From contig NZ_JBLYYF010000009.1 of the NCBI RefSeq assembly GCF_048550555.1, positions 19-64,018 on the forward strand: a DNA stretch of 64,000 bases, written 5' to 3'. Below are positions 24,491 to 38,792 of the stretch, in pieces. The stretch is from Qipengyuania sp. (GTDB lineage: Bacteria; Pseudomonadota; Alphaproteobacteria; Sphingomonadales; Sphingomonadaceae). How positions within the stretch are numbered: the stretch's first letter is position 1; the number at the start of each line of letters is the position of its first letter. The position numbers were made by a program, and so were the translations under genes. Below the pieces are notes generated by a model. The model worked only from the letters and a program-made list of their open reading frames with translations, did not search any database and was not told the DNA's origin.

Positions 24491-26155
24491 CTAGCATCCG
24501 AATTTCACGAACTCCAGTTCCGGAAACCCTGCGTCAGCCGATTGATCGAGCCTGTCGTAGTACGCGTTTGCTCCGCCGAAATAGATCAGGACGCGCGGCG
24601 CCTTGTCGTCGCGGTTCGCGCCCATCATCCAGGAATTGACCTCGTCGCCCCGGGCCATCAACGTCTGGTTGTGGATGTCCGCGGTATGCTTGGTCCATTC
24701 GCGCTCGGCCGCGATGCGCGGCTCGAAGACGTCGTATCCTTCGCGCTCCATCTTCTGCACGCAGCGGGCGATCCAGATGACGTTCTGCTCGATCGATGTC
24801 GGCAGGTTGGCAAACGGCGCTTGCGGTCCGGTGATGATGAACAGGTTGGGGAAGCCGGCAACGCAAGTCCCCATTATGGAATCGGACGACTTGCGCCATT
24901 TCTCGTTGAGTGTCTCACCCTCGCTGCCGCGGATCGGGAAGGCCTCGAGTGCGCCCGTATAAGCCTTGAAGCCGGTGGCCAGCACGATGATGTCGAATTC
25001 GTGGTCCTTGCGCGTGGTGCGCAGCCCGGCCTCGGTGATCTCGACCAGGGGCTCCTTGTCTTTGATGTCGACCAGGGTGACGTTGTCGCGATTGAGTGAT
25101 TTCAGGTAGCCTTGGTCGAGCGGCGGGCGTTTGGCGAACAGCGGGTATTCGTCGAGATCCGGTGCCACCAGGTCGGCGGTTTCGGGATCGTCGACCTGTT
25201 CCTTCATCTTGCGCGTGATGAATTCGGAAGCCAGGCGATTGGCCTCGGGATTGGTCAGCAAGTCATCGAAGGTTTCGAAGACCCAGCGGAAGCTGCCCGT
25301 CCAGTTCTCCTCGAACACGCGTTGCACCTCGTCGGGAGCCGTATCTGCGACGGTCCTGCCGGTCGGGCTGTCGAACGCCATTCCGAACGAATGACTGCGG
25401 CATTTCTGCACGATGGCGTCGTAATTCTCTTTGATCTCCTTTTCCCATTCCGAGGTCATCGGTCGCTGCATTGCGGGGAGAATGTAGTTGGGCGTGCGCT
25501 GGAACACCGTGACGCTGGCGGCGGTTTCGGCGAGGACCGGGACCATCTGCACGGTCGTCGATCCGGCGCCGATGACGGCCACCTTCTTGCCCGCATAGTC
25601 GAGGTCCCGCGGCCAGCGCGAGGAATGGAAGATCGGCCCCTCGAAGCGCTCGATGCCCTTGATCTTCGGGATCATCGGCTCCGAGATCATGCCCATCGCG
25701 CTGACGAGATATTTGCAGGTCAGGGTCTCGCCGTCATCCGTCGTGACACGCCAGCATCCCCGGTCGGCAAGGTATTCCGCCTCGACCACTTCGGTGTCGA
25801 ACTGGATGTGAGGCCACATATCGCATTCGTCGGCAACGAACTTCAGATAGGCCTGCGTTTCCTCCCACCCGGGATAGCGTTTCGTCCAGGACCACTTCTG
25901 CAACAGGTCCTTCGAGAAGGTCAGGCAATAGTAATAGCTTTCGCTATCGGTCGCCGCGCCCGGGTAGCAGTTCCAGTTCCAGGTTCCGCCGATATCCTTC
26001 GCGCGGTCGAGTATGCGGACCGACAGCCCCTCCTGACGCAGGTAATGGATCAAGGCCAGGCCCGCGAAACCGGCACCGATCCCGATCGCGTCGAAGTCCA
26101 CATCCGATCCGGTTTTGCGAGTCGCCATTGCCGTACCGAGTTCCTGCGTCGTCAT
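24491..26155 (-). CDS. type I Baeyer-Villiger monooxygenase (cyclohexanone monooxygenase family)
   Basis: Two Rossmann motifs (GAGFAG, GAGSTT), GGTWNWNCYPGAATD, fingerprint FEGPIFHSSRWP, ATGF. ATG 26155 with a GGAG/AGG RBS. Confidence 0.94.
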   Translation of the reverse strand: MTTQELGTAMATRKTGSDVDFDAIGIGAGFAGLALIHYLRQEGLSVRILDRAKDIGGTWNWNCYPGAATDSESYYYCLTFSKDLLQKWSWTKRYPGWEETQAYLKFVADECDMWPHIQFDTEVVEAEYLADRGCWRVTTDDGETLTCKYLVSAMGMISEPMIPKIKGIERFEGPIFHSSRWPRDLDYAGKKVAVIGAGSTTVQMVPVLAETAASVTVFQRTPNYILPAMQRPMTSEWEKEIKENYDAIVQKCRSHSFGMAFDSPTGRTVADTAPDEVQRVFEENWTGSFRWVFETFDDLLTNPEANRLASEFITRKMKEQVDDPETADLVAPDLDEYPLFAKRPPLDQGYLKSLNRDNVTLVDIKDKEPLVEITEAGLRTTRKDHEFDIIVLATGFKAYTGALEAFPIRGSEGETLNEKWRKSSDSIMGTCVAGFPNLFIITGPQAPFANLPTSIEQNVIWIARCVQKMEREGYDVFEPRIAAEREWTKHTADIHNQTLMARGDEVNSWMMGANRDDKAPRVLIYFGGANAYYDRLDQSADAGFPELEFVKFGC

Positions 26156-26198
26156 TTGCCATCCTCTCCACAAATCCAAATATCTCTTGCCGGGTCCG

Positions 26199-27380
26199 TC
26201 AACGTCCCGCCCAACGAGCACCTCCGGTTTCGAATTCTCCAACAGGATCGGGCAGCCCGATCTCGGCCAGCAGGTCCTCGCGGTCGGCGTCACGGCGCCA
26301 CATTCTGGGCGTGACGGCTGGCGTATTCTCGAACCGGGGTGCCGGCTTCGGTTGCACATACCCGTCGGCTTCGCAGAAGATGTCCCGGGCGAGGCAATGT
26401 TCGTGCGCCAAGGCGTCTTCCATCGTGAGGACTTCGGTGAAACAGCAGTCGACGCTCGCCAGTCGATCGATCCAATCTGCGCGCGGAGCGGATGCAAATG
26501 TCTTCGCCAGTCGCGCTTGCATGGTCGGCCACCTCGACCGGTCGTGCTGGTCGGCAAATAGCGGGTCCGCGTCGAGGCCCATCGCTTCGAGAAAACTCGC
26601 GTAGAACTTGGCTTCGATGGCTCCGATCGCGACGAACCGGCCATCGGCGCATGCATAGCACGAATAGAACGGGGCGCCGCCGTCGAGAAGGTTTTCGCCG
26701 CGCGCCCCGTTCCACATGCCGTTGTGCTTGAGCGACCACATTCCGGCCATGAGCGCGGCCGAGCCGTCGGCCATCGCGCAATCGATCACCCGGCCGCGGC
26801 CGTCGGCCCGAGCCGCGAGCAAGGCCGATACGAAACCGAACGCCAGCAGCATCCCGCCGCCGCCGTAGTCGCCGATCAGGTTGAGCGGAGGCGACGGCGG
26901 CTGCGTTTTCGGGCCCAGGGTTGCAAGGCAACCGCTCATCGAAATGTAGTTGAGATCGTGACCCGCCTTGGCCGCCAGCGGCCCGCTTTGCCCCCAACCG
27001 GTCATCCGACCGTAGACGAGAGAGGGCTTGCGCTCCATCATCGCCTCGGGCCCGAGGCCAAGTCGCTCGGCGACGCCGGGCCGAAACCCTTCGATGAGGC
27101 CGTCGGCAGTTTCGACCAGCCTTGCGACGATCTCGACCGAGTCCGGTTGTTTGAGGTCCAGGGTGATGGTCCGGCGCGACCGCAACAGGACATCGCGTTC
27201 CTGGTCCTGCGAGAGCGGGTCGCTTCCGCCCGGACGATCGATCCTGATGACCTCTGCCCCATGATCTGCGAGCATCATCCCGCAAAACGGCGCCGGGCCG
27301 ATTCCCGCCAACTCGATGACGCGTACGCCATCGAGCACCGGTCGCAGCGACGTGTCGTCGAGGTGTTCCGCGCGGCCCAT
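26199..27380 (-). CDS. CaiB/BaiF family enzyme, alpha-methylacyl-CoA racemase-like
   Basis: ELAGIGPAPFCGMMLADHGAEVIRIDRPG, EGFRPGVAERLGLGP, GHDLNY, LLDGGAPFY. Confidence 0.9.
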   Translation of the reverse strand: MGRAEHLDDTSLRPVLDGVRVIELAGIGPAPFCGMMLADHGAEVIRIDRPGGSDPLSQDQERDVLLRSRRTITLDLKQPDSVEIVARLVETADGLIEGFRPGVAERLGLGPEAMMERKPSLVYGRMTGWGQSGPLAAKAGHDLNYISMSGCLATLGPKTQPPSPPLNLIGDYGGGGMLLAFGFVSALLAARADGRGRVIDCAMADGSAALMAGMWSLKHNGMWNGARGENLLDGGAPFYSCYACADGRFVAIGAIEAKFYASFLEAMGLDADPLFADQHDRSRWPTMQARLAKTFASAPRADWIDRLASVDCCFTEVLTMEDALAHEHCLARDIFCEADGYVQPKPAPRFENTPAVTPRMWRRDADREDLLAEIGLPDPVGEFETGGARWAGR

Positions 27381-27542
27381 TCTATTGCTTCGCCTCAATC
27401 CGGTCAGGTCCGCAGGACGAAGGCCGCCGACAGTCCGCTTGCGCCGGTGCAAACACACAACTTCGCAGATGCCGCTGCGCTGCTGCAGGTGCCATGCCAT
27501 CTCTCCTACCACCACCAAACGAAAGCGGGGGCTCTCATCTTA

Positions 27543-27627: not shown

Positions 27628-28335
27628 TCAGTCGGCGATGCCGAAGGTTGCTTTCGTCGAGGTACGGAAGGATGTGAATTCCTTGGCGAGATCGACGCTC
27701 TCAGGCGCGACGAGCCATTGGTAGATCGTGCCGAAGATGAAGCTGCAAAATCCGAACGCATAGCTTTGCGCATCGACCGATTTGTCGATCTCCCCACTCG
27801 CCATGCCTTCCTCGACCCAGTGCGCGATGTCGCTACGATAGATCTGGTGATAGGCGGCAAGGTGCCTGCGCACGTCGTTGTGCGAACTGATCGATTCAAA
27901 CCACAATATATACATTGCCTTCATGTAACCGCTATGGCTCGACAGGAACCCTTCGACCGCGCTCAGCGCGGCGAGACAGGCCTGCGCACCGCCCTGTTCG
28001 CCCACCTTGTTGGCGAGTTCGCGCGTCCAGCTCGTGTTGAAATGCAAAACCAGCTGACCGAACAGCGCGTCCTTCGACCCGAAGCGGCTCGACGCCAGCC
28101 CCCGTGAATATCCCGCCCGCTCGCCGACGGATTTGAGGGTGGTCGCGTGCGTTCCCTGTTCGACGATCAGCTGCATCGCCGCATCGAACATGCGCGCATC
28201 GGAAAGCGCGGTGCGTTCCGCCTGCGTCCGGCGCCGGGAGCGCGGCTTCTTGGGTTTCTGTATCGGGTTCGCAACCTGCGATTTCGTCACCTCGCGAAGT
28301 GAAGCCTTTCCCTTTGTTGGCGATGATGCGCTCAT
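27628..28335 (-). CDS. TetR/AcrR family regulator
   Basis: RRTQAER...MFDAAMQLIVEQGTHATTLKSVGERAGYSRGLASSRFGSKDALF HTH. The start may be a later GTG. Confidence 0.9.
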   Translation of the reverse strand: MSASSPTKGKASLREVTKSQVANPIQKPKKPRSRRRTQAERTALSDARMFDAAMQLIVEQGTHATTLKSVGERAGYSRGLASSRFGSKDALFGQLVLHFNTSWTRELANKVGEQGGAQACLAALSAVEGFLSSHSGYMKAMYILWFESISSHNDVRRHLAAYHQIYRSDIAHWVEEGMASGEIDKSVDAQSYAFGFCSFIFGTIYQWLVAPESVDLAKEFTSFRTSTKATFGIAD

Positions 28336-29966
28336 TGGACTTCGTCGATCCTTTCAAACTCTGTGTCGCCGGCCGCAACTGCTTCACGCAGGGCCTGCTT
28401 GTCTATCTTGCCGACGCTGGTCAACGGCAGGGCATCGATATGCGCCCAGTATTCGGGCACCCAGAAATGCGCGATCCGGTCCCGCAACGAACCTCTCAGC
28501 CGGGCGAAATCGGGCCGTGCGCCATCGACGGTAGTCACGATCGCGAGGGGCCGTTCCTCCCAGCGCGGATCGGGCACACCAATCACAGCGGCGAGATCGA
28601 TGCCCGGCAGGCCCGATACATGGTTTTCCAGCTCCGCCGAAGGGATCCACTCGCCACCCGACTTGATGAGATCTTTCAGGCGGTCGGTCACCTGGACGTA
28701 GCCCCGCTCGTCGATCGTCCCGGCATCGCCGGTGTCGAGCCAGCCATCCACCGTCAGGACGTCGTCGCCCACGCCACGGTGATAACCACTTGCGATCCAG
28801 GCGCCCCTCAACTGGAGCCTGCCTACGTCGGCACCGTTCTCGGCGACCAACATGCCATCGTCGTCGACCAGACGGACCTTCACCCCGGGAACCGGACGAC
28901 CGCTTTTGGCGCGCAGCCTGCGCGCTTCGGCCTCCACCACATCGGCGGCAGGCTGAGACAGCACGCACAGGGGGCTCGTTTCGGTCATGCCCCATCCCTG
29001 GATCAAGGGCACGTGCCAAGAGCGTTCAACCTCGGCAATAAGTCTCTCGGACACGGCCGAACCGCCGGCGACGATTGTTCTGAAACTGGTCATGTCGACC
29101 GGATCCTCCGCGTCCGCGCGCAGCAGATCGTTAAGTATGGTCGGGACGGTGGCGGTAAAGGTCGGTGCCGTCACGGCGATCATTTTGCGGATCGCGACGG
29201 GCTGCAGGTGCGGCCCCGGAAGCACGAAATCCGACCCGGCCAACCAACCAGAAAAGGGCAAGCCCCAGGCGTTGGCGTGAAACATCGGCGGCAGCAACAG
29301 GATGGTGTCGCGGTCGCCAAGTCCAAAGGCGTTGGCCGCCATCGATGCCAGGCTGTGAAGGAAGATTGTCCTGTGCGAATACACAACACCTTTGGGATTC
29401 CCCGTCGTTCCCGAGGTGTAGCACACGGCCGCCGCAGCGGTTTCGTCAGGGATCGGGAAATTGACCATGGGGCCGTGGGCTGAGATGAGTTCTTCGTAGC
29501 TCACCCAGGGTTTTGTCAGGCCTTTGGGCGTCGCGGGATTTCCCGTGACGACCACCAGCTTCAGCGCAGACAGCGCATTGACCTGCGCGAGCACATCGCC
29601 GAGCAGGTCGCTATCCGCAATCAGTATCGCATCTTCTGCGTCCGCCATGATGAAGCCGATCTGGTCGGGATGGAGACGAAGGTTGAGCGTGTGCAGGACC
29701 GCACCCATCGCCGGGACTGCGAGATAGGCCTCGAAATGGGCGAAGTCGTTCCAGCTCAGCGTCGCGACCCGCGTATTGTTTGCTACCCCGACGGCGCGAA
29801 GCGCGGTCGCCAGGCGGCGCGCCCGTTCGGCCGTCTGCGCGTAGGTTTGCCACGTCATGTCTTCGCCGTCGAAACAGCCTATCCGTTTCGTCGCGTGGAT
29901 GCGTTCACCGTGCTCGAAAATGGCGGCCGTTCCCAGCGGCTCGTGCATCATGGTCGCCTCCATCAC
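28332..29966 (-). CDS. acyl-CoA synthetase (AlkK/LvaE/DmdB-type)
   Basis: CYTSGTTGNPKGVVYSHR, PMFHANAWGLP, QGWGMTETSP, DRLKDLIKSGGEWI. Confidence 0.92.
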   Translation of the reverse strand: MMEATMMHEPLGTAAIFEHGERIHATKRIGCFDGEDMTWQTYAQTAERARRLATALRAVGVANNTRVATLSWNDFAHFEAYLAVPAMGAVLHTLNLRLHPDQIGFIMADAEDAILIADSDLLGDVLAQVNALSALKLVVVTGNPATPKGLTKPWVSYEELISAHGPMVNFPIPDETAAAAVCYTSGTTGNPKGVVYSHRTIFLHSLASMAANAFGLGDRDTILLLPPMFHANAWGLPFSGWLAGSDFVLPGPHLQPVAIRKMIAVTAPTFTATVPTILNDLLRADAEDPVDMTSFRTIVAGGSAVSERLIAEVERSWHVPLIQGWGMTETSPLCVLSQPAADVVEAEARRLRAKSGRPVPGVKVRLVDDDGMLVAENGADVGRLQLRGAWIASGYHRGVGDDVLTVDGWLDTGDAGTIDERGYVQVTDRLKDLIKSGGEWIPSAELENHVSGLPGIDLAAVIGVPDPRWEERPLAIVTTVDGARPDFARLRGSLRDRIAHFWVPEYWAHIDALPLTSVGKIDKQALREAVAAGDTEFERIDEVQ

Positions 29967-30994
29967 GCGAACCCTTCTTCGCGCGCGAACCGCGCGGCTG
30001 CGTCGAGCAGGGAGGGGACATCGTGTTCGAGCGCACGCTCATATTTTCCGTCGACCAAGCCAAGGCGATGGAGCACGTACGCCCCTTCGACGATCGCGGC
30101 GAGGCGCCAGAGCGCGAAGGCCTGGTAGAAGCGAAGGCGGTCGATCGACAGCCCGGTCCGTCGGCTCCATCGCAAGGCGAGACCGTCGCCCCCGATCACC
30201 CCGGCATGGTTGGACATCCTCTGGACGAAGGCAAAGCCCAACGGCTGGCTCTCGTCGCGATTCCACATCGCGGTGACCAGGCCGACATCGACCAGTGGAT
30301 CGGCCAGCGTTGCCATTTCCCAATCGAGGATCGCATTCACGCGCGGTTGCTCCGAAGCCATGAGCACATTGTCGAGATGGTAGTCGCAATGGACGATTCG
30401 CACCGTTTCAGGTGCCGGCGCGTTTTCCGAAAGCCATCCGCCGATGGCTTCGATCAAGGGTAGGTCGCGCGCCTTGCGTTCACGCCGCTCCTCGCGCCAG
30501 CGTTCGACCTGCCGGAGGACGAAGTCGCGCCCCTTATCGATGCTGCCGAGCCCAGCAGACGGCGGATTGATCGCATGGACGCTGGCCAGCGCATCGATAA
30601 GCGCCGCACCGATCGCGTCGCGGCAGGCCGCGGTGTCCGGATAGGTCTTGGGCAGGCGATCGGTTATCGCTTCGCCGTTTACGAAGCGGGTGATGGAGAA
30701 AGGCACGCCGATGAGGTCGAGATCATCGCAAAACAGGACTGGCTCAGCGACCGGGGCCGAGCCTGCGATGGCGGATATGAAGCGGAATTCGCGAGCAATG
30801 CCTGCTCCGGCGAGCTTGGAAATGGTTGCTTGAGGCGGGTGGCGCAAGATCATTGGCCCATTCGCCGTCTCGATCAGGCTGGTGACGTTGGCATTGCCTC
30901 CTGCCACGGGCCGCACCAACCGAGCATCTCCAAGTCCGGCCTCTGTGTCCAGCCAGCGCACGAGGCGCTCGGGCAAATCGACTATAGCTTGCAC
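29963..30994 (-). CDS. APH-family phosphotransferase (LvaA/ACAD10-11 kinase-like)
   Basis: GGNANVT glycine loop, IVHCDYHLDNVL, ILDWEMATLADPLVDVG. Start GTG 30994 is tentative. Confidence 0.88.
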   Translation of the reverse strand: MQAIVDLPERLVRWLDTEAGLGDARLVRPVAGGNANVTSLIETANGPMILRHPPQATISKLAGAGIAREFRFISAIAGSAPVAEPVLFCDDLDLIGVPFSITRFVNGEAITDRLPKTYPDTAACRDAIGAALIDALASVHAINPPSAGLGSIDKGRDFVLRQVERWREERRERKARDLPLIEAIGGWLSENAPAPETVRIVHCDYHLDNVLMASEQPRVNAILDWEMATLADPLVDVGLVTAMWNRDESQPLGFAFVQRMSNHAGVIGGDGLALRWSRRTGLSIDRLRFYQAFALWRLAAIVEGAYVLHRLGLVDGKYERALEHDVPSLLDAAARFAREEGFA

Positions 30995-31716
30995 ATCAGA
31001 CCGCCATCGTTCGCGATTATGGAGCCTGTCATGTAAGTCGAGCCCGCGACCCACCAAACGACTTCCGCCAGTTCTTCGGGCGTGCCTTCGCGTCGAAGGG
31101 GGATTCCGTCGATCAGTTTTGTCTTCGCGCGTTCCGGAATGTTGTCGGTCATATCGGTTGAGATCATCCCCGGAATGACGAGATTTACCCGGATCGCCTG
31201 CCGAGCGAGTTCGATCGCCAGCACCTGGGTCAGTCCGGCCAACCCGGCTTTCGACGCCCCGTATGCGGCATCACCGGCAAACCCCCGCAGGCCAACCACG
31301 GCCCCGATGTTCACGATCGATCCGCCCTTGCCCATGTGCGGCAGAGCGGCGCGCACGAAGTTGAACGGACCGGAAAGGTTCGTATCGAGCACGCGCTGCC
31401 AATCCTCCTGCGGCAGGGCCGACACCAGCCCTCCGCGATGCAGGCCCGCATTGTTGACAAGGACATCGATCCCGCCCCAGCGCTCGGCTACCTGTTTGCA
31501 GACTGCATTGGCCTCTTTCGGATCCGAGACGTCCGCCGCCAAGCCGATGGTGTCGCCATCGATCGAATTGGCGCTCGCCTCGATGTCGTTGCCACGTGAC
31601 ACGAGCGCGACCCGATCGCCGTTGCTGGCAGCCACCTGGGCAATCGCGAGACCCAACCCTCGCGATGCCCCCGTGACGATCCATCTTCGCTGTTCGCTTT
31701 GCGGGCCCGACGCCAT
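30982..31716 (-). CDS. short-chain dehydrogenase/reductase (FabG-like)
   Basis: TGASRGLG, NNAG, YGASK. Confidence 0.92.
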   Translation of the reverse strand: MASGPQSEQRRWIVTGASRGLGLAIAQVAASNGDRVALVSRGNDIEASANSIDGDTIGLAADVSDPKEANAVCKQVAERWGGIDVLVNNAGLHRGGLVSALPQEDWQRVLDTNLSGPFNFVRAALPHMGKGGSIVNIGAVVGLRGFAGDAAYGASKAGLAGLTQVLAIELARQAIRVNLVIPGMISTDMTDNIPERAKTKLIDGIPLRREGTPEELAEVVWWVAGSTYMTGSIIANDGGLMCKL

Positions 31717-31728
31717 TGCGCGATCGTC

Positions 31729-33990
31729 TTAGAACGTCTGGGTCAGAGCGACGCCCCAACTCCGCCGAGGTCGCGGGGCGGCATAGCTCCAGACACCCTG
31801 CACGTCGTAGCCGATGGTCCAGCCGTCCTCGTTCGCGAGGTTCTTGCCGAACAGGCTGAGCGTGGTTTGATTGAACCGGACGTTGACGGAGGCATCGATC
31901 AGGAATTGTCCGTCATTGCGCAGGTTCGGGTTGTTGAGGAAGGTTATTTCGTGCCCGCCAATATAGTGGATATCGCCGGTCACCCAGGCCGTCGCATTCT
32001 GCGCTACTGCCGCCTCATAGGTTCCGCCGATGCTCCAGGTCCATTTCGGGGCGCGACGAATCTTGAGGAATGTTGCGTCCACCGGCGTCCCGGTGCTGAA
32101 GATATCGCCCATGAAGTCCTTGTACTTGGCGTCGAGGTAGCCGAGGTTCCCGCGTATCGTGAGCCCGTCGACCGGGATGGCGGTCAGGTCGAGTTCGACG
32201 CCTTTGAATTCAGCCGAGGAAGCGTTGATCGTACGGTTCTCGCGTCCGGTCGAGGTGCCCGGGGCCGGCACGTCGAGGTCCTGCTGCATGTCGTCGTATT
32301 TCATCAGGAAGACCGCGCCGTTGAGGCGGACCAGCCCGTTCGCGAATTCGGCCTTGAAGCCGGCTTCGTAGTTGTCGAGCGTTTCCGGGTCGTAGGGAAT
32401 GGTCGCCGCACCGATCGTTGCCGGTCGCCCATTGAAGCCGCCGCCGCGATAGCCACGCGACCATAGGGCATAGACCATCGCGTCGTCGGAAAGTTCGTAG
32501 CGCAGTGACACGCGCGGTGTGAATTTCGACCAGCTTTCCCGAACGGGCGCAGCCATCGAAATCGCGCCGGGAAGGGTCGCGACCGGGTCCTCCTCGACCG
32601 TGGTTCCATAAAGCAAGATCGGCAGGTCGTTGACGATGCTCGACTTCTTGTCCTTGGTGTAGCGCGCACCGAGAGTCAGGGTCAGCCGATCGACAAGCTC
32701 GTAGTCGGCCTCACCGTAGAGCGCCCACGACTTGTTGGTCTGTGCAACGTCCTGCGCGCTCGTCAGCAATGGCACGCCGGCGAAGCCGATGTAGTTCTTC
32801 AGGTTGATAGTGTAGCGCGAGTCCCACAGATACGCGCCCAGCACGAAGGTCAAGGGACCGTTACCGCCCTTGGTCAGCCGCAACTCGTTCGTCGTCTGGC
32901 GCCAGCGGGCGGGCCGGTCGGTGTGATAGAGTGTGAACGGGGCCGCATCGAAATCCTGATAGATTTCTTCGTCGGTCTTGAGCCAGCCGAAGATGTAATC
33001 GACCTGCATGTCCGCCCCGATGTCGTAGGTCGCCTTGCCGATCGCCATGTCGAGCTTGAATGTCGCGTTCTTCTGCAGGCGGCCGTCCGAAACGCTGACA
33101 TAGCGGTCGCCCGAAGTTGGCACGCCGGGCGAAGGGGAGCATTGGTCGTAGGCGACGCAGAAGAGGTCCGTGTCGCGGTTGATTGCCAGTAGCTGCGGCG
33201 GATCCTGTCTGGTTTTCTGGTGGTCGTAGCTGAGCAGGATGTCGAGGTTCTCGGTGGGCTCGATCAGCAGAGCGCCCGCGACGGCGTAGAATTCCGAGCG
33301 CTGTCCCGGCTGGTCGTAGAAGCGGTTGTAGATATATCCGTCGGACGCTTCGTAGGCTCCACTCACCTTCAGCGCGATGTTCTCGGATAAGCCGGTGCTG
33401 GCGACGCCTTCTATTTTCCAGGTGTCGAACCTGCCATAGGTCGCGCGCACTTTGCCCGTGAGGTCGTATGTCGGGCGAGAGCGCGCTAGATTGATGACGC
33501 CGCCGGTAGCATTGCGACCGAAGAGCGTCCCCTGCGGGCCCCGCAGGACCTCGACCCGGTCGATGTCGATCGCCTTCAGAAGGCTGCCCGAGCTCTGGCC
33601 GATATAGATGTCGTCGAATACCACGCCGACGGCCGGGTCGACCGATTTCTCGACATCGGCGACGCCGATTCCGCGAATGTAGACCGCTGCCACACCGCCT
33701 GGCCCCTGCTGCGTATCGTCGATCACGATGTTGGGCGAAGAGTCAGCAAAATCCCTGACATCCGAATCGAACCGCTTGTCGAGCTCGCCGGCGGAGAGCG
33801 CACTGATCGATGCGGGCACGTCCTGCATACTTTCTTCGCGCTTGCGCGCGGTCACCACGATGACGTCGAGCCCGCCCGAGGTGGCGGCCTGTTCGCTATC
33901 GGTTTCTTCCTGTGCATGAGCGACCGTGGCGGGGCCGAATGTGGCCGCCGCGATCGCAAGCAGGCTCACGTACGTCGCTTGATTGATCAT
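31729..33990 (-). CDS. TonB-dependent receptor
   Basis: Signal peptide, IVVTARKREESMQDVP, VEVLRGPQGTLFGRNATGG, C-terminal Phe. ATG 33990 with a GGGAGAG RBS. Confidence 0.95.
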   Translation of the reverse strand: MINQATYVSLLAIAAATFGPATVAHAQEETDSEQAATSGGLDVIVVTARKREESMQDVPASISALSAGELDKRFDSDVRDFADSSPNIVIDDTQQGPGGVAAVYIRGIGVADVEKSVDPAVGVVFDDIYIGQSSGSLLKAIDIDRVEVLRGPQGTLFGRNATGGVINLARSRPTYDLTGKVRATYGRFDTWKIEGVASTGLSENIALKVSGAYEASDGYIYNRFYDQPGQRSEFYAVAGALLIEPTENLDILLSYDHQKTRQDPPQLLAINRDTDLFCVAYDQCSPSPGVPTSGDRYVSVSDGRLQKNATFKLDMAIGKATYDIGADMQVDYIFGWLKTDEEIYQDFDAAPFTLYHTDRPARWRQTTNELRLTKGGNGPLTFVLGAYLWDSRYTINLKNYIGFAGVPLLTSAQDVAQTNKSWALYGEADYELVDRLTLTLGARYTKDKKSSIVNDLPILLYGTTVEEDPVATLPGAISMAAPVRESWSKFTPRVSLRYELSDDAMVYALWSRGYRGGGFNGRPATIGAATIPYDPETLDNYEAGFKAEFANGLVRLNGAVFLMKYDDMQQDLDVPAPGTSTGRENRTINASSAEFKGVELDLTAIPVDGLTIRGNLGYLDAKYKDFMGDIFSTGTPVDATFLKIRRAPKWTWSIGGTYEAAVAQNATAWVTGDIHYIGGHEITFLNNPNLRNDGQFLIDASVNVRFNQTTLSLFGKNLANEDGWTIGYDVQGVWSYAAPRPRRSWGVALTQTF

Positions 33991-34084
33991 GGTTCTCTCT
34001 CCCAGCGCTGGGCGCAATTTCTGATCGCGGATGCTATTGCCATTCTCGCGATTTGCGCTGCTACAAGAGCATGACTCACATGCT

Positions 34085-34208
34085 TGCTCTCGACAAGCAA
34101 ATATTTTCGACAAGCGCATATGCCTCTGTTGGAAAATTCTAAGATTTTGACTCCAAACGACTTTATTCTGAATTCCGGTGCAAACACTATTGTTGCTTGT
34201 TCCAAGCT
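34085..34208. promoter_or_regulatory. divergent promoter region with candidate operator dyads
   Basis: TGCTTG-TTC-CAAGCT at 34194-34208 and TGCTCT-CGA-CAAGCA at 34085-34099 in an AT-rich spacer. Confidence 0.45.
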
Positions 34209-34261
34209 ACTAAGTGTGCAAAAAGATTTCAGAGGATAATTCGACGATCGGGAGAGAGTGA

Positions 34262-35014
34262 ATGGCAGGCCGACTTTCGGGAAAGTCGGCGCTTATCTCG
34301 GGTGGCGCGAGCGGCCTGGGCGAAGCGCAGGCGACCTTGTTTGCGCGGGAGGGCGCGACCGTCCTCGTCGGCGACTTGCAGGGCGACAAGGGCAACGCCG
34401 TCGTCGAGACGATCCGCGCCGAGGGGGGTGAGGCAGCCTTCATCCGCCTCGATGTTTCCGATCCGGAAAGCTGGGCAACCGCTGTATCGGATGCGGTCTC
34501 GCGCTTCGGCAAGCTGACAACGCTGGTCAACAATGCCGGCATCTTTCATCCGGGCGGCATTCTCGAGGAAACAAAGGAAGGCTGGGATCGCATGATCGCG
34601 ATCAACCAGACCGGCGTGTTTCTGGGTATGAAGGCGGCGGGCGACGCCCTGCTGCAATCGGGCAATGCGGCGATCGTCAACATCAGCTCACTCTATGGCC
34701 TGATGGGCAGCCCGAATGCCATTTCCTATCACGCATCTAAGGCAGCCGTCCGGTTGATGGGCAAGGCCGGCGCGCTCGAATTCGCCAAGCGCGGCATTCG
34801 CGTGAACACGATTTTTCCGGGTCAGATATTGACCCCGATCCTCGGCGACATCACGCCCGAACAGGATGCCGCCATCAAGGCGTCGATCCCGATGGGGACC
34901 GTAGGCGACCCGATGGATATCGCCTATGCCAGCCTCTACCTTGCGTCGGACGAGGCGAAATACGTCTCGGGTGCCGAGCTGTGGGTCGATGGGGCGTGGT
35001 ACGCCGGGCAATGA
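34262..35014 (+). CDS. short-chain dehydrogenase, LinX-like
   Basis: 250 aa; MAGRLSGKSALISGGASGLG, LTTLVNNAGIFHPGG, YHASK, IPMGTVGDPMDIA, LASDEAKY. Collinear with Sphingobium LinX as recalled. Confidence 0.9.
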   Translation: MAGRLSGKSALISGGASGLGEAQATLFAREGATVLVGDLQGDKGNAVVETIRAEGGEAAFIRLDVSDPESWATAVSDAVSRFGKLTTLVNNAGIFHPGGILEETKEGWDRMIAINQTGVFLGMKAAGDALLQSGNAAIVNISSLYGLMGSPNAISYHASKAAVRLMGKAGALEFAKRGIRVNTIFPGQILTPILGDITPEQDAAIKASIPMGTVGDPMDIAYASLYLASDEAKYVSGAELWVDGAWYAGQ

Positions 35015-35054
35015 ACACGGTGTCGCCATCGCAGCAGATCGTACGGAGCCGCTA

Positions 35055-36350
35055 ATGGGCTGGGACTTTTCGACCGACCCCGAGTTCGAGGAACAGCTCG
35101 AGTGGATGCGCGGTTTCGTCGCCGAGGAAGTCGAACCGCTGGATCTCGTGTTCAGGGATCCCGGTGCGCATGTCGATCCGAAATCTCCCGCCGCCCGCGC
35201 CATGGCACCGCTCAAGGACGAGGTGAAACGGCGCGGGTTGTGGGCCTGCCATCTCGGCCCCGATCTCGGCGGCAAGGGCTTCGGCCAGCTCAAACTCGGC
35301 CTGATGAACGAAATCCTCGGTCGCAGCCGGTTCGCCCCGACCGTGTTCGGGACGCAGGCCCCCGACACCGGCAATGCGGAAATTCTCGCCCGGTTCGGGA
35401 CCCTCGAACAGAAGGCCAAGTATCTCCAGCCACTGCTCGACGGCGAGATCGTGTCGTGCTTTTCGATGACAGAGCCGCAGGCGGGCGCCGACCCGGGCGA
35501 GTTCTCCTGCACGGCGAAGCTCGATGGCGACCAGTGGGTAATCGATGGCGAAAAATGGTTCGCCAGCCACGCCTGTCTCGCCGAATTCCTGATCGTGATG
35601 GCAATCACCGATTCGGCCGTGCCCGTACATCACGGATCCACGATGCTCATCGTTCCGCACGATACACCCGGGCTGGAGATCGTGCGCAACACGGCGGTCG
35701 GGCCGAAGGACGAGATCGGCAGCGGGGTCCACGGCTATCTGCGCTTCACGAATTGCCGGGTGCCGGAGGCCAGCCGCCTAGGTCCGGTGGGGGAAGGCTT
35801 CAAGGTCGCCCAGTCGCGGCTCGGCGGCGGGCGCATCCACCACGCGATGCGCACCGTCGGCATGCTCAACAAGGCGATGGAATACATGACCGAGCGCGTT
35901 GTCAGCCGTACGACCAAGGGCGAGCGGCTGGCCGACAAACAGATGGTTCAGGAGAAGATCGCGGACAGCTACACGCAGATCCTCCAGTTCCGGCTTCACG
36001 TGCTTTACGCAGCCTGGCTGCTCGACCAGGACCGGGCCTATACGCGCAGGGTCCGACGCGAAATCGGCGCAATCAAGGCGGCCATGCCGGGTGTGCTCAA
36101 GGACGTGGTCTATCGGGCGCTGCACCTCCACGGTTCGCTGGGTATGTCGAACGAAACGCCGCTGATGGACATGTGGCAGTACGTTCCCGAAATGGGGATC
36201 GTCGACGGCCCGACCGAAGTGCACAAGGTAGCCGTGGCGAAGGACATCCTACGCGGAGTCGCGCCCGCCGACGGCCCCTTTCCCAGCTATCACGTGCCGA
36301 CCCGCCTGGCGGCGGCACGGCGAAAATTCGCGGATTTCATCGAACACTAG
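35055..36350 (+). CDS. acyl-CoA dehydrogenase family protein (ACAD10/11, LvaC/FadE2-type)
   Basis: GTQAPDTGNAEIL, SCFSMTEP, AQSRLGGGRIHHAMR, DGPTEVHK. Start ATG 35055. Confidence 0.92.
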   Translation: MGWDFSTDPEFEEQLEWMRGFVAEEVEPLDLVFRDPGAHVDPKSPAARAMAPLKDEVKRRGLWACHLGPDLGGKGFGQLKLGLMNEILGRSRFAPTVFGTQAPDTGNAEILARFGTLEQKAKYLQPLLDGEIVSCFSMTEPQAGADPGEFSCTAKLDGDQWVIDGEKWFASHACLAEFLIVMAITDSAVPVHHGSTMLIVPHDTPGLEIVRNTAVGPKDEIGSGVHGYLRFTNCRVPEASRLGPVGEGFKVAQSRLGGGRIHHAMRTVGMLNKAMEYMTERVVSRTTKGERLADKQMVQEKIADSYTQILQFRLHVLYAAWLLDQDRAYTRRVRREIGAIKAAMPGVLKDVVYRALHLHGSLGMSNETPLMDMWQYVPEMGIVDGPTEVHKVAVAKDILRGVAPADGPFPSYHVPTRLAAARRKFADFIEH

Positions 36351-36373
36351 GCTGGAGTGCGTGGGAGCGGAAC

Positions 36374-36841
36374 ATGTCTGACGGTACGGAGTTGGAACAT
36401 CGCCTCGACCGGATCGAGAGCAGGTTCGCGATGCACGAGCTCGTGAGCGACTACTGCCACGGTTTCGACAAGCGCGACTGGGACCGGTTCGCCGCGATCT
36501 GGTGGCCCGACGCGATCTGGGACATCGGCCCGCCTTTCGGCACGTTTCAGGGGATCGAGGAGATCACGGATGTCACCAAGGACATCCTGTGGGACGCCTG
36601 GCTCGCCTCGAGCCATTTCACCACCAATCTGGTCATCACCTTCGATGGCAGGGATGCGGCAAACGGCCTGTGCGACGTCGACTGCATCGGCACTACCTCC
36701 GACAAACAGGCGCAGACCGTCAGTGCGAGCTATTTCGACCGGTTCGAAAGGCGCGGAGGGATCTGGAAAATCGCCACTCGCAAGGTGAAGATGTACCACT
36801 TCAATCCATTGCCTGGCGTCACGCTGACGCCGCCTGCATAG
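36374..36841 (+). CDS. NTF2/SnoaL-fold protein, LinA (gamma-HCH dehydrochlorinase)-like
   Basis: 155 aa from ATG 36374 (GGGAG RBS): LDRIESR, FDKR, IWWPDAIW, ILW...SHFTTNL, NG..DV, FERRGGIWK...R, FNPLPG. Confidence 0.88.
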   Translation: MSDGTELEHRLDRIESRFAMHELVSDYCHGFDKRDWDRFAAIWWPDAIWDIGPPFGTFQGIEEITDVTKDILWDAWLASSHFTTNLVITFDGRDAANGLCDVDCIGTTSDKQAQTVSASYFDRFERRGGIWKIATRKVKMYHFNPLPGVTLTPPA

Positions 36842-36849
36842 GAGCAACT

Positions 36850-37653
36850 ATGGCCTATTTCGAAACCGAAGGCGGCGGCCACGTCTATTACGAGCATTTT
36901 CGCGGCGAAAAATTTCCCGTCGTCCTGGTCCATGGCTGGGGCATGTCGGGCGAATACTGGGCATCCGCAATCGAGGCGCTGCAGGCGGAAGGCCATGGCG
37001 CGATCATCGTGGACCATCGTGGATGTGGACGATCGGATCGCGACTTCGCCGATATGTCGATCGGCGCGATCGCCGGCGACGTGGCCGCGATCGTCCGTCA
37101 GTGCGGCCCGGAGCGTGTCGTGCTCAACGGCTGGTCGCTCGGCGCGGCCGTGGTCGTCGCGGCCGCCGAGATCCTCGGCGACCGGGTGGCGGGGCTGATC
37201 CTGACCTGCGGTGCCTCGCCGCGCTACGTTCAGGGAGAGGGCTTCCCCCATGGCGGAACCGCCGAGGATGTGCTCGGCATTTGCAGCGCGATTACCGCCG
37301 ACCGACCCGGCTTCTTCCGCACGCTCGCCGAAGGCGCGGCGGGCGAAGGCGCGAGCGAGGCGCTGATCGGCTGGGTCGAGCGCGGCTTCCTCGCCTCCGG
37401 TCCACGCGCAAGCGAAACGCTTGCCGGACTCGCCACGCTCGACCAGCGCGTGTTGCTCTCGTCCTTTCCCTTCCCGGTGCTCTCGATCGGGGGGGCGAAT
37501 GATGCCATCGCCGATCCGGCCATCGCGGGATTCGCGGCCGACTGTGCGCAGCACGGGACGCTGGTGACACTGAACACGGGCCATTCGCCCCAGCTCGAGA
37601 CCCCCACAGCCTACAACAACGTCCTGATAGAATTTATGAGGAAGCTCGCATGA
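36850..37653 (+). CDS. alpha/beta hydrolase (serine nucleophile; lactonase/esterase-like)
   Basis: VHGWG, DHRGCGRSD, GWSLG elbow, GGANDAI, GHSP. AGGAG RBS overlaps the previous stop. Confidence 0.9.
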   Translation: MAYFETEGGGHVYYEHFRGEKFPVVLVHGWGMSGEYWASAIEALQAEGHGAIIVDHRGCGRSDRDFADMSIGAIAGDVAAIVRQCGPERVVLNGWSLGAAVVVAAAEILGDRVAGLILTCGASPRYVQGEGFPHGGTAEDVLGICSAITADRPGFFRTLAEGAAGEGASEALIGWVERGFLASGPRASETLAGLATLDQRVLLSSFPFPVLSIGGANDAIADPAIAGFAADCAQHGTLVTLNTGHSPQLETPTAYNNVLIEFMRKLA

Positions 37654-38792
37654 TCTCCTCCGTGGTCGACGACCTCGCCGCTTTACTCGCACCCTTGCGG
37701 GCACCCTTCGAATGCAAGTCCTTGAAGGCGCCGAACCGCTTCTGCATGGCGCCGATGTCGCGCTATTTCGCGCCCGGCGGCATCCTGACCGAGGACGGAG
37801 CCGAATATTATCGCCTTCGCGCAGCGGCGGGTATCGGCACGATCATCACCGAGGGCACCGGCGTTGCAATCGATCACAGCGTTGCCGCGGATTCGGTGCC
37901 GCTGTTCGCCGGCGACGAAGCGCTGGCTGCGTGGAAGAGAGCGGTGGACGCGGTTCATGCCGAAGGCGGAACGTTCGTACCGCAACTGTGGCATGTGGGT
38001 GGCTGCTCCGATTTCAATTTCCCCGATTCACCCCACGCCCCGCTGGTCAGCCCGTCGGGTTTCGCCGGACCCGACGTGCCCGGTGGCCGTGCCATGAGCG
38101 ACGAGGACATTGCCGATACCGTGGCGGCATTCGCCGAATCCGCGCGCGCGGCGAAGGACATGGGTTGCGACGCGATCGAACTCCACGGCGCGCACGGCTA
38201 CATCTTCGACCAGTTCTTCTGGGACAAGACCAATTTGCGTAAGGATCGCTATGGCGGACCGGACATTGCCGACCGGGCGACTTTCGCGGCCGAAGTCGTG
38301 GCCGCATGTCGCGAGGCGGTGGGCGATGATTTCGCGATCATCCTGCGCATTTCGCAATGGAAGACCTACGACTACGAGGTGAAACTCGCGAACGATCCCG
38401 ACGAGATGCAACGCTGGCTCGACCCGCTCGTTCGTGCCGGAGTGGATATCTTCCACGCATCGCAACGCCGGTTCTGGGAGCCCGAATTCGTCGGCGACAC
38501 GAAGAACTTCGGCGGTTGGATCAAGGAGGTAACCGGCAAGCCGGTGATCACCGTCGGATCCATCGGCATGAACCGTGATCTGATGGAGGATTTCGTCGAG
38601 GGCATTTCCTCGCCCATGCTCAACCGGCTGGTCGATCTGGTGGACATGTTCGACCGAGGCGAGTTCGATCTCGTCGCACTGGGCCGCGTCCTTCTCGCCG
38701 ACCCAGACTGGCTGGAAAAGATCGAGCAGCGGCGGATCGACGAACTCAAGCCCTACGACCGCGCGACTGCGCTCGAGCGCTACGAACACTGA
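37650..38792 (+). CDS. Old Yellow Enzyme family NADH:flavin oxidoreductase
   Basis: NRFCMAPMSR, QLWHVG, ELHGAHGYIFDQF, RKDRYGG, LGRVLLADP. Confidence 0.93.
   Translation: MISSVVDDLAALLAPLRAPFECKSLKAPNRFCMAPMSRYFAPGGILTEDGAEYYRLRAAAGIGTIITEGTGVAIDHSVAADSVPLFAGDEALAAWKRAVDAVHAEGGTFVPQLWHVGGCSDFNFPDSPHAPLVSPSGFAGPDVPGGRAMSDEDIADTVAAFAESARAAKDMGCDAIELHGAHGYIFDQFFWDKTNLRKDRYGGPDIADRATFAAEVVAACREAVGDDFAIILRISQWKTYDYEVKLANDPDEMQRWLDPLVRAGVDIFHASQRRFWEPEFVGDTKNFGGWIKEVTGKPVITVGSIGMNRDLMEDFVEGISSPMLNRLVDLVDMFDRGEFDLVALGRVLLADPDWLEKIEQRRIDELKPYDRATALERYEH

Follow-up and report, generated by a model that had tools for sequence, protein, structure and literature searches.

How did linX and linA, neighbouring genes of bacteria that degrade hexachlorocyclohexane (HCH), come to lie together? 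The question is raised by a locus of Qipengyuania sp. located at positions 34,262–36,841 of a stretch of 64,000 nucleotides (nt) of contig NZ_JBLYYF010000009.1; this whole stretch is called the window below. In this locus, genes for a LinX-like short-chain dehydrogenase/reductase (SDR), an acyl-CoA dehydrogenase (ACAD) and a LinA-like enzyme of the NTF2 fold follow one another. HCH has been in use since the 1940s, and LinX and LinX2 are SDRs with 2,5-dichloro-2,5-cyclohexadiene-1,4-diol (2,5-DDOL) dehydrogenase activity whose genes adjoin linA. Published work regards linA–linC as single genes acquired horizontally, each of one origin and spread by IS6100, and linX and linX2 as linC-like neighbours of linA that HCH degradation does not require (PMC4478539, PMC5144681, PMC4289293), LinX being dispensable for this process (PMC4478539). 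Neither a linA progenitor nor an SDR-NTF2 cassette or ancestry is named in the literature searched, whose scope left out subscription journals, and this is no proof of novelty.

The first-pass annotation of the locus proposed that this locus type was the donor context from which linX-linA was excised. Our analysis leads to another explanation, which we consider likely when taken as a whole, including the relation to lin and the mechanism outlined below: (i) the locus is an unremarkable chromosomal copy of a catabolic cluster, called T1 here, that is widespread and inherited mainly by vertical descent; (ii) its SDR and its NTF2-fold protein belong to the families from which LinX/LinX2 and LinA arose; and (iii) it is a cousin of the lin genes and not their donor, the lin genes being nearest to a second, compact arrangement (T2) and the progenitor of linA being unsampled.

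Relatives of LinX and LinA encoded in the window

The three genes in question are the following.

34262..35014, plus strand: LinX-like classical SDR of 250 amino acids, accessory first gene of the operon (Pfam adh_short_C2, 8e-61; 57.0% identity to LinX)
35055..36350, plus strand: ACAD10/11-type ACAD of 431 amino acids, with its ATG at 35055 (Pfam Acyl-CoA_dh N, M and C domains)
36374..36841, plus strand: LinA-like SnoaL_4/NTF2-fold enzyme of 155 amino acids with Y27, D32, H81 and R136 (Pfam SnoaL_4, 1.1e-23; best match in the PDB, LinA)

The list of open reading frames (ORFs) and direct reading of the junction sequences bear out that the three genes are co-oriented and that the gaps between them are exactly 40 and 23 nt.

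For comparison, reference LinX, LinX2, LinA and LinC sequences were taken from annotated plasmids of Sphingobium sp. TKS (pTK4), S. indicum B90A (pSRL1) and Sphingomonas sp. MM-1. The SDR of the window is 57.0% identical to LinX over 249 of its 250 residues (E 4e-100) and equal to it in length, in agreement with the estimate by eye that more than half of the residues are shared. Its identity to LinX2 is 57.4%, and only 36% to LinC. LinX records were the top matches among more than 5000 matching plasmid records. The best PDB matches, R-specific alcohol dehydrogenases and 3-alpha(20-beta)-hydroxysteroid dehydrogenases (about 1e-50), were weaker than LinX, for which we know of no solved structure. 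The translation contains the hallmarks of classical SDRs (GGASGLG, NNAG, ISS and YHASK) and is covered in full length by the adh_short and adh_short_C2 domains. Both proteins contain every LinX motif listed in the first-pass annotation, with a single difference: INQT of the window protein is VNQT in LinX.

The closest non-lin relatives of LinX are the SDRs of T1 loci with full synteny, to which it is up to 64% identical. The SDR of the window thus groups with LinX and not with other dehydrogenases, the point that had been set beforehand as a possible refutation. It lies outside the LinX/LinX2 clade, in a T1 clade that is sister to LinX, LinX2 and the T2 SDRs; within that T1 clade it belongs to a Sphingopyxis/Erythrobacter sub-clade. 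In sum, LinX, LinX2 and the window protein are alike as classical SDRs of 250 amino acids with shared motifs and 57% full-length identity; they differ in their setting, since the ACAD gene separates the window SDR gene from the NTF2 gene, while linX2 abuts linA.

The NTF2-fold protein is more distant from its lin counterpart: its identity to LinA is 37.7–39.0% over 146 residues. Nevertheless, LinA structures (5kvb, 3s5c and 3a76) are its best PDB matches (E 4e-31 to 4e-28, residues 10–154), the next match having an E value of 8.5e-06. D32, H81 and R136 align with D25, H73 and R129 of LinA and are invariant in the 53 T1 NTF2 proteins examined; W42, I44, L64, V94 and A111 (LinA numbering) are also common to LinA and the window protein. 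The two proteins share the SnoaL_4/NTF2 fold and length, align end to end, and are encoded downstream of a LinX-family SDR (LinX2 in lin). Unlike linA, the window gene lies in a conserved chromosomal operon without IS6100, and dehydrochlorination by its product would be only hypothetical. It falls outside the LinA clade, within which known variants are at least 86% identical and a divergent metagenomic form 74%, and is placed in a Sphingopyxis/Erythrobacter sub-clade of T1. Compared with T1, LinA and the T2 NTF2 proteins have a one-residue deletion and a shorter N-terminus in common.

To characterize the active site, we compared 19 LinA pocket positions, taken from a published list (PMC3507683). 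Fourteen of the 19 are invariant in the 53 T1 proteins (Y27, C28, F31, D32, W49, L72, W76, H81, V102, C104, A118, Y120, R136 and V138); such a uniform pocket points to one conserved substrate of the T1 proteins. Outside the three residues D25, H73 and R129, nine of the 16 other pocket positions of the window protein differ from every LinA variant compared. They include Y20, C21, F24, W68, S71, V109, V131 and K132, where active LinA variants have K/Q20, L21, V24, F/Y68, C/T71, I109, A/G131 and C132. All T1 and T2 proteins have Tyr at position 20, five residues ahead of the Asp; the LinA forms have Lys, Gln or Leu there.

It should be mentioned that ten sites split the UT26-type LinA from LinA1/type 2 (20, 23, 68, 71, 96, 113, 115, 129, 131 and 133). 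At five of them the relatives match LinA1/type 2, namely G23, C96 and Y113 in T1 and T2, T71 in T2 and M133 in most T1 proteins. At D115 and R129 both T1 and T2 match the UT26 type, and the remaining three sites match neither. Neither LinA variant type is wholly ancestral.

The linX-linA spacer

According to the first-pass annotation, linX lies roughly 1 kb upstream of linA in strain UT26. The distance measured in UT26-type loci was indeed 1081 nt (TKS pTK4; it is equal in MM-1 pISP1). The spacer of TKS pTK4 contains two LinX-like tblastn segments in different reading frames, and it aligns end to end, at 97.5% identity and with two gaps of 22 nt in total, with the B90A region that holds an intact linX2. 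The linX-linA spacer is therefore a frameshifted linX2 pseudogene, that is, a decayed SDR gene. An ACAD relic in the spacer, which the first-pass annotation had suggested looking for by tblastn, was rejected: the ACAD of the window gave no spacer match in the TKS, B90A and MM-1 loci.

Intact linX2 ends 60 nt before linA in B90A pSRL1, in MI1205 pMI2 and in three further assemblies. The lin unit as a whole consists of an ACAD11-type gene on the minus strand and linX, linX2 and linA diverging from it. The ACAD encoded in this conserved flank belongs to the ACAD10/11 subfamily (E 8e-137 to ACAD11) and is 34% identical to the window ACAD (lin loci L001, 4329–5567, and L002, 3286–4524). The window ACAD was assigned to the same subfamily by its closest PDB entries, 4hr3 (9.7e-72), ACAD11 8v3u (5e-66) and 2wbi (2e-64), ordinary ACADs reaching 3e-41 at best. 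So the same unusual ACAD subfamily accompanies a LinX-family SDR in both lin and T1 loci, although the two enzymes are only 34% identical.

The G+C content is 53% for linA and 59% for linX and linX2. A similar tendency was observed in T1, where the G+C content of the NTF2 gene is on average 2.8 points below that of its ACAD and hydrolase neighbours, the gene being lower in 64 of 65 loci. No such difference was found at third codon positions, so that the low G+C of the NTF2 gene stems from amino-acid composition, and the low G+C of linA is partly a trait of the family.

A compact SDR-NTF2-SDR cassette

An exhaustive phmmer search of 1.84 billion representative sequences with a LinA variant as a query returned LinA fragments, then one protein of 148 amino acids (44% identity, E 3.5e-34), and then proteins at 32–34%. 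The metagenome contig encoding the 148-residue protein carries a TonB receptor gene on the minus strand and, divergent from it, an SDR gene (SDRa), the NTF2 gene and a second SDR gene (SDRb). We call this arrangement T2. It was also found in Novosphingobium sp. ST904, a Sphingobium sp., Sphingopyxis indica and plasmid pISP0 of MM-1; the full layout is TonB receptor (minus strand), SDRa-NTF2-SDRb, and old yellow enzyme (OYE) on the minus strand. The gaps between SDRa and the NTF2 gene are 21–44 nt, and each of the four T2 loci without an interrupting insertion sequence shows the SDR-NTF2 linkage.

The NTF2 proteins of T2 are 36–46% identical to LinA and 46–52% to the window protein; SDRb is 59–62% identical to LinX, and SDRa 57–60% to LinX2. 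T2 resembles the T1 locus of the window in its divergent TonB receptor, LinX-family SDRs, LinA-family NTF2 protein and nearby OYE, and its NTF2 pocket is that of the window protein except at positions 24, 64, 71, 132 and 133. It differs in lacking the ACAD, the APH kinase and the hydrolase, and in having an SDR on each side of the NTF2 gene.

The flanks of T2 are identical in content in ST904 and the Sphingobium sp., with OYE, DUF423 and glutathione S-transferase genes on one side and genes for an SDR, a metallo-beta-lactamase-fold protein, an acyltransferase and an FAD monooxygenase on the other; the ST904 locus extends to an epoxide-hydrolase-like gene. In Sphingopyxis indica, an IS21-family element lies upstream and IS6100 downstream of T2. 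In MM-1 pISP0, a truncated T2 piece lies near IS6100, a copy of which is found about 0.7 kb upstream. MM-1 pISP0 (L003, 7905–8954) and the chromosome of Sphingopyxis indica (L096, 7417–8466) share a T2 piece of 1,050 bp at 99.6% identity; it comprises the NTF2 gene and the first 466 bp of SDRb. Evidently, linA relatives are on the move in these two strains, both of which we take to be isolates from HCH dumpsites.

Phylogeny and search for intermediates

In the NTF2 trees, the LinA variants and the T2 proteins form a clade (support 100/96–97) inside a T1-type superclade (100/97) from which other SnoaL_4 families are excluded. A position of LinA nested within Novosphingobium-type T1 proteins was not reproduced when three T2 sequences were added and eight long outgroups dropped, and only the membership in the superclade was kept. 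In the SDR tree, LinX, LinX2, SDRa and SDRb form one clade (97/95), sister to the clade of alphaproteobacterial T1 SDRs (94/80). Within it, LinX pairs with SDRb (93/87) and LinX2 with SDRa (88/72). The corresponding orthologies (LinX with SDRb, LinX2 with SDRa) are favoured by the tree and were not accepted as firm in view of the approximately unbiased (AU) test (p = 0.32). At the resolution available, both trees agree in placing lin nearest to T2, and both as related to T1.

Identity to LinA ranges from 33.6 to 46.2% among T1 NTF2 proteins (median 38), and identity to LinX from 55.4 to 63.9% among T1 SDRs (median 58). Within T1, the pairwise identities of the SDR and NTF2 proteins co-vary (r = 0.855; 946 non-independent pairs), which is what co-inheritance predicts. 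In a mirror-tree regression, LinA lies about 8 identity points below the value predicted from SDR identity, an extrapolation beyond the T1 range; this hints that LinA may have changed faster after its shift in function.

Word-based searches, the exhaustive search of representatives and metagenome searches yielded no LinA relative between 47% and 74% identity except one garbled sequence at 66% (P0278). The closest non-lin relative of LinA, and the most divergent LinA-clade protein found (74–76%), is encoded on a metagenome contig of 1,090 bp (L093, 608–1033; JGI metagenome 3300048997).

Origin of the linX-linA linkage

The SDR-NTF2 linkage, known from 42 of 73 assessable T1 loci, four uninterrupted T2 loci and lin itself, is common to all three and probably ancestral. 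The linkage elsewhere and the congruent trees that the first-pass annotation had called for were therefore found. Its suggestion that the linX-linA pair is mirrored in the window holds in so far as an older natural linkage is supported; excision from T1 is not. We tentatively propose, giving it slightly less than an even chance, that linA, linX2 and linX co-descend from a natural T2-like SDR-NTF2(-SDR) cassette of a sphingomonad catabolic cluster related to T1. LinX would then be a leftover beside linA; LinA would be a Tyr/Asp/His eliminase of alicyclic hydroxy-ketones in which the Tyr was lost and which diverged faster than its partner SDR, and IS6100 would still pick up members of this cassette family in strains from HCH dumpsites.

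Several observations weigh against the explanation as a whole. The gene order differs, being SDR-SDR-NTF2 in lin and SDR-NTF2-SDR in T2, and the linkage is not obligatory, since 31 of 73 T1 loci are without the SDR. LinA sits on a long branch, and the attachment of the LinA-T2 clade is unstable: it fell beside Novosphingobium T1 proteins in one tree and, with weak support, between the alphaproteobacterial and gammaproteobacterial T1 proteins in another. The AU test did not reject LinX and LinX2 as sisters, so that the orthology of LinX with SDRb and of LinX2 with SDRa is weakly supported. By identity, some T1 NTF2 proteins (Novosphingobium fuchskuhlense, 46–48%) are as close to LinA as those of T2 (36–46%). 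The metagenomic relative L093 has a cytochrome-c-like ORF and no SDR in the 600 nt upstream, and His at the position of D25; its lack of an upstream SDR is the main evidence against an unbroken SDR-NTF2 adjacency along the LinA lineage. Finally, the substrate and role suggested below for the NTF2 enzyme are read from gene content only.

Could the T1 locus type nevertheless be the direct donor, its ACAD gene having been lost or having decayed in the 1-kb spacer? The SDR and NTF2 genes have the same order and orientation in T1 as in lin and lie about 1.3 kb apart, compared with 1.08 kb for linX-linA; an ACAD10/11-type gene adjoins linX, and one tree nests LinA and T2 inside the Novosphingobium-type T1 clade. 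Yet the spacer is a linX2 pseudogene with no similarity to ACAD, and the ACAD beside linX is divergently oriented and 34% identical to that of T1. T2 groups with lin in both trees and resembles it in the direct adjacency of SDR and NTF2 genes, the window's own copies belong to a Sphingopyxis/Erythrobacter sub-clade, and the nested position vanishes once T2 is added and the long outgroups are removed. Moreover, T1 NTF2 proteins share only 34–46% identity with LinA, and T1 SDRs only 55–64% with LinX. An excision dating from the roughly 80 years of HCH's existence would have left far higher values, which rules out T1 as a recent donor. A T1 donor, as the first-pass annotation had it, is therefore very unlikely: T1 is too divergent, and T2 stands nearer to lin. 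A different objection is that the linkage is coincidental or convergent, IS6100 having put linA beside linX and linX2, or SDR-NTF2 pairs having been assembled independently, so that T1 and T2 would tell nothing about the origin of linA. Reshuffling of lin genes by IS6100 is notorious (PMC4478539, PMC5144681), linA has a lower G+C content than linX and linX2 (53% against 59%), L093 lacks the upstream SDR, and the gene order varies among T1, T2 and lin. However, no insertion sequence lies between linX2 and linA, whose 60-nt gap resembles the 21–44 nt of T2; the nearest relatives of LinA and of LinX/LinX2 come from the same loci; and the G+C content of the NTF2 gene is below that of its neighbours in 64 of 65 T1 loci, so that the low value of linA is partly a family trait. 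We regard coincidence as unlikely, if worth keeping in mind.

In one more reading, the window holds a cryptic lindane locus, the NTF2 protein being a working HCH dehydrochlorinase and the SDR a 2,5-DDOL dehydrogenase. The equivalents of D25, H73 and R129 are intact in the window protein, and JGI pipelines name its relatives 'gamma-hexachlorocyclohexane dehydrochlorinase' and those of the SDR '2,5-DDOL dehydrogenase 2'. These names are automatic transfers. The identity to LinA is 38%, nine of the 16 other pocket positions are unlike any LinA variant compared, the window contains no IS6100, and the operon is conserved in many metagenome-assembled genomes from freshwater and soil, embedded in a CoA-dependent pathway. 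This reading is hardly credible, and the names 'HCH dehydrochlorinase' and '2,5-DDOL dehydrogenase 2' on members of these families are over-annotations.

Three points are added here. LinA is a member of a large and well-conserved enzyme family whose pocket is invariant; a LinX-family SDR is its habitual neighbour; and, of the relatives known so far, a compact SDR-NTF2-SDR cassette stands nearest to the lin trio. If true, co-descent from such a cassette would give the first concrete starting point for reconstructing the origin of a dehydrochlorinase for a chemical of the 1940s. The lead is moderately interesting and directly testable, and both latent dehydrochlorinase activity and the natural substrate of the family become testable with it. 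For the window itself the result is modest: a typical copy of a common operon with new members of known families.

Gene content and distribution of the T1 cluster

T1 consists of two divergent units. The plus-strand operon encodes the LinX-like SDR, the ACAD10/11-type ACAD, the LinA-like NTF2 protein, an alpha/beta hydrolase and an OYE; the minus-strand unit encodes a TonB receptor, a second SDR (SDR2), an APH kinase, an acyl-CoA ligase, a TetR regulator, a family III CoA-transferase and a Baeyer-Villiger-type monooxygenase. The window has this order, with SDR-ACAD-NTF2-hydrolase-OYE divergent from TonB receptor-SDR2-APH. In it, the hydrolase gene follows the NTF2 gene after a gap of 8 nt and overlaps the OYE gene by 4 nt. 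The further features of the locus are as follows.

24491..26656, minus strand: flavin monooxygenase of the Baeyer-Villiger type, at the far end of the minus-strand unit; start codon uncertain (Pfam FMO-like, 8.5e-19; Pyr_redox_3, 7e-17)
26199..27518, minus strand: CoA-transferase family III/racemase-like protein; start uncertain, the ORF overlapping that of the monooxygenase (Pfam CoA_transf_3, 5e-83)
27628..28335, minus strand: TetR-family regulator, likely a local repressor (Pfam TetR_N, 3.6e-12)
28332..29966, minus strand: acyl-CoA ligase with a putative LvaE-like role; 4-nt overlaps at both ends (Pfam AMP-binding, 5.5e-73)
29963..31057, minus strand: APH-family kinase with a putative role like that of LvaA or of the ACAD10/11 kinase domain; adjoins SDR2 in nearly all T1 loci (Pfam APH, 4.9e-40)
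30982..31716, minus strand: SDR2, a FabG-like second SDR conserved in T1 loci, 30% identical to the LinX-like SDR (Pfam and NCBIfam)
31729..34119, minus strand: TonB-dependent outer-membrane receptor, divergent from the plus-strand operon (Pfam Plug and TonB_dep_Rec_b-barrel)
34120..34261, no strand: divergent intergenic region of 142 nt between the receptor and SDR genes, read directly; promoters and operator presumed
36850..37653, plus strand: alpha/beta-fold hydrolase of 267 amino acids, candidate lactonase/esterase (Pfam Abhydrolase_1, 5.9e-24; NCBIfam BioH/PcaD-like matches below cut-off)
37650..38792, plus strand: OYE-family flavin oxidoreductase of 380 amino acids, last gene of the operon (Pfam Oxidored_FMN, 4.7e-53)

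As the first-pass annotation had noted for the locus, IS6100 is missing; no IS6100 transposase is encoded anywhere in the window. The APH kinase ORF as listed overlaps the 3' end of SDR2 by 76 nt (30982–31057). A similar overlap of about 50–75 nt was observed in many related loci; either the genes have kept a long overlap in common, or the start codon has been mis-assigned in the same way throughout.

The distribution of the cluster was studied by tblastn of the window proteins against 80 loci, with one genome per species. The synteny that the first-pass annotation had suggested surveying recurs across Sphingomonadales and beyond: in these 80 species genomes T1 spans Sphingomonadales, other Alphaproteobacteria and Gammaproteobacteria. 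The order is kept with near-identical spacing in Sphingopyxis, Erythrobacter sp. AP23, Altererythrobacter, Croceicoccus, Novosphingobium, Sphingomonas and Polymorphobacter, the locus nearest to that of the window being the one from Erythrobacter sp. AP23 (85–90%). The receptor keeps its position in Sphingopyxis- and Erythrobacter-type loci, with identities of 78–86%. The cluster is present in reduced form in Rhodospirillaceae, Rhizomicrobium, Rhodobiaceae, Steroidobacteraceae and Pseudomonadales. The NTF2 protein of the window itself has more than 300 database clusters at 64% identity or more, many of them labelled 'gamma-HCH dehydrochlorinase' by JGI pipelines.

Among the assessable loci, the ACAD gene immediately precedes the NTF2 gene in 69 of 73 and the LinX-like SDR gene lies upstream of the ACAD gene in 42 of 73; downstream of the NTF2 gene, the hydrolase is present in 67 of 72 and the OYE in 51 of 72. 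These counts make ACAD-NTF2-hydrolase the invariant core of the cluster and the LinX-like SDR an accessory first gene, which is absent, for example, from Sphingorhabdus-type loci. A metagenome scan added 42 further loci, 41 of which were T1; the remaining one (L110) was too short to show its neighbours.

One T1 locus (L087, 8310–12913; Logan contig DRR783088) has, in place of the OYE gene, genes for a luciferase-like monooxygenase, an F420-type oxidoreductase, a radical-SAM CofH-like protein and a flavin reductase, which suggests that the T1 operon is modular at its 3' end.

Predicted function of the cluster

From the gene content we infer that the native function of the NTF2 enzyme is probably an elimination or isomerisation by Tyr, Asp and His within a pathway of the Baeyer-Villiger monooxygenase/lactonase/Lva-like kind. 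The enzyme would work without a cofactor, by acid-base catalysis through Tyr27, Asp32 and His81, Arg136 lying close by. Its reaction would be a dehydration by 1,2-elimination or an allylic isomerisation, and its substrate a probably alicyclic compound with an oxo or hydroxy substituent, prepared by the neighbouring SDR. The OYE would saturate the enone, the monooxygenase would make a lactone, and the hydrolase would open the ring. The ligase, SDR2, the APH kinase and the ACAD could feed the 4-oxo/4-hydroxy acid into beta-oxidation via phospho-elimination, as in the Lva and ACAD10/11 systems. Within this family, LinA would stand out by the loss of the Tyr, position 20 being Lys, Gln or Leu, and by having turned to the elimination of HCl from a cyclohexane ring; LinX and LinX2 would be its accompanying SDRs. 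It suits such an ancestry that LinA and LinX both act on six-membered rings, cyclohexane and cyclohexadiene-diol, respectively.

Two known systems bear comparison with this scheme. In the Lva pathway and in ACAD10/11, a 4-hydroxyacyl-CoA is phosphorylated by the kinase and the phosphate is eliminated by the ACAD. The window locus resembles LvaABCDE of Pseudomonas putida and mammalian ACAD10/ACAD11 in having an acyl-CoA ligase, an SDR, an APH-family kinase and an ACAD11/4hr3-like ACAD. It is unlike them in that the kinase and the ACAD are encoded in divergent units and that an NTF2 protein, a hydrolase, an OYE, a monooxygenase and a TonB receptor are present in addition. The other comparison concerns the NTF2-fold dehydratases, such as the bile-acid 7-alpha-dehydratase BaiE and scytalone dehydratase, which are very distant in sequence from the window protein; the locus contains no steroid genes. 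In an HMMER alignment to 4leh, a weak match (E 8e-4), Y27, D32 and H81 align with the Tyr-x4-Asp and the His of BaiE, which we take to be its catalytic residues. In the bai operon, BaiE works alongside an SDR (BaiA) and OYE-family flavoenzymes (BaiCD and BaiH). Hsh2 of strain Chol11, which is an NTF2-type 7-alpha-hydroxysteroid dehydratase, was considered as a candidate for a characterized T1 member but not adopted as such.

A further gene of the lin loci deserves mention in this context. An EthD-domain gene lies directly after linC (L001, 11848–12534; L002, 10242–10928). Another EthD protein, Hsh3 of Sphingobium sp. Chol11, has recently been identified as a 7-beta-hydroxysteroid dehydratase (PMC12175502). 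Thus, linC may also have been recruited with a dehydratase-type neighbour.

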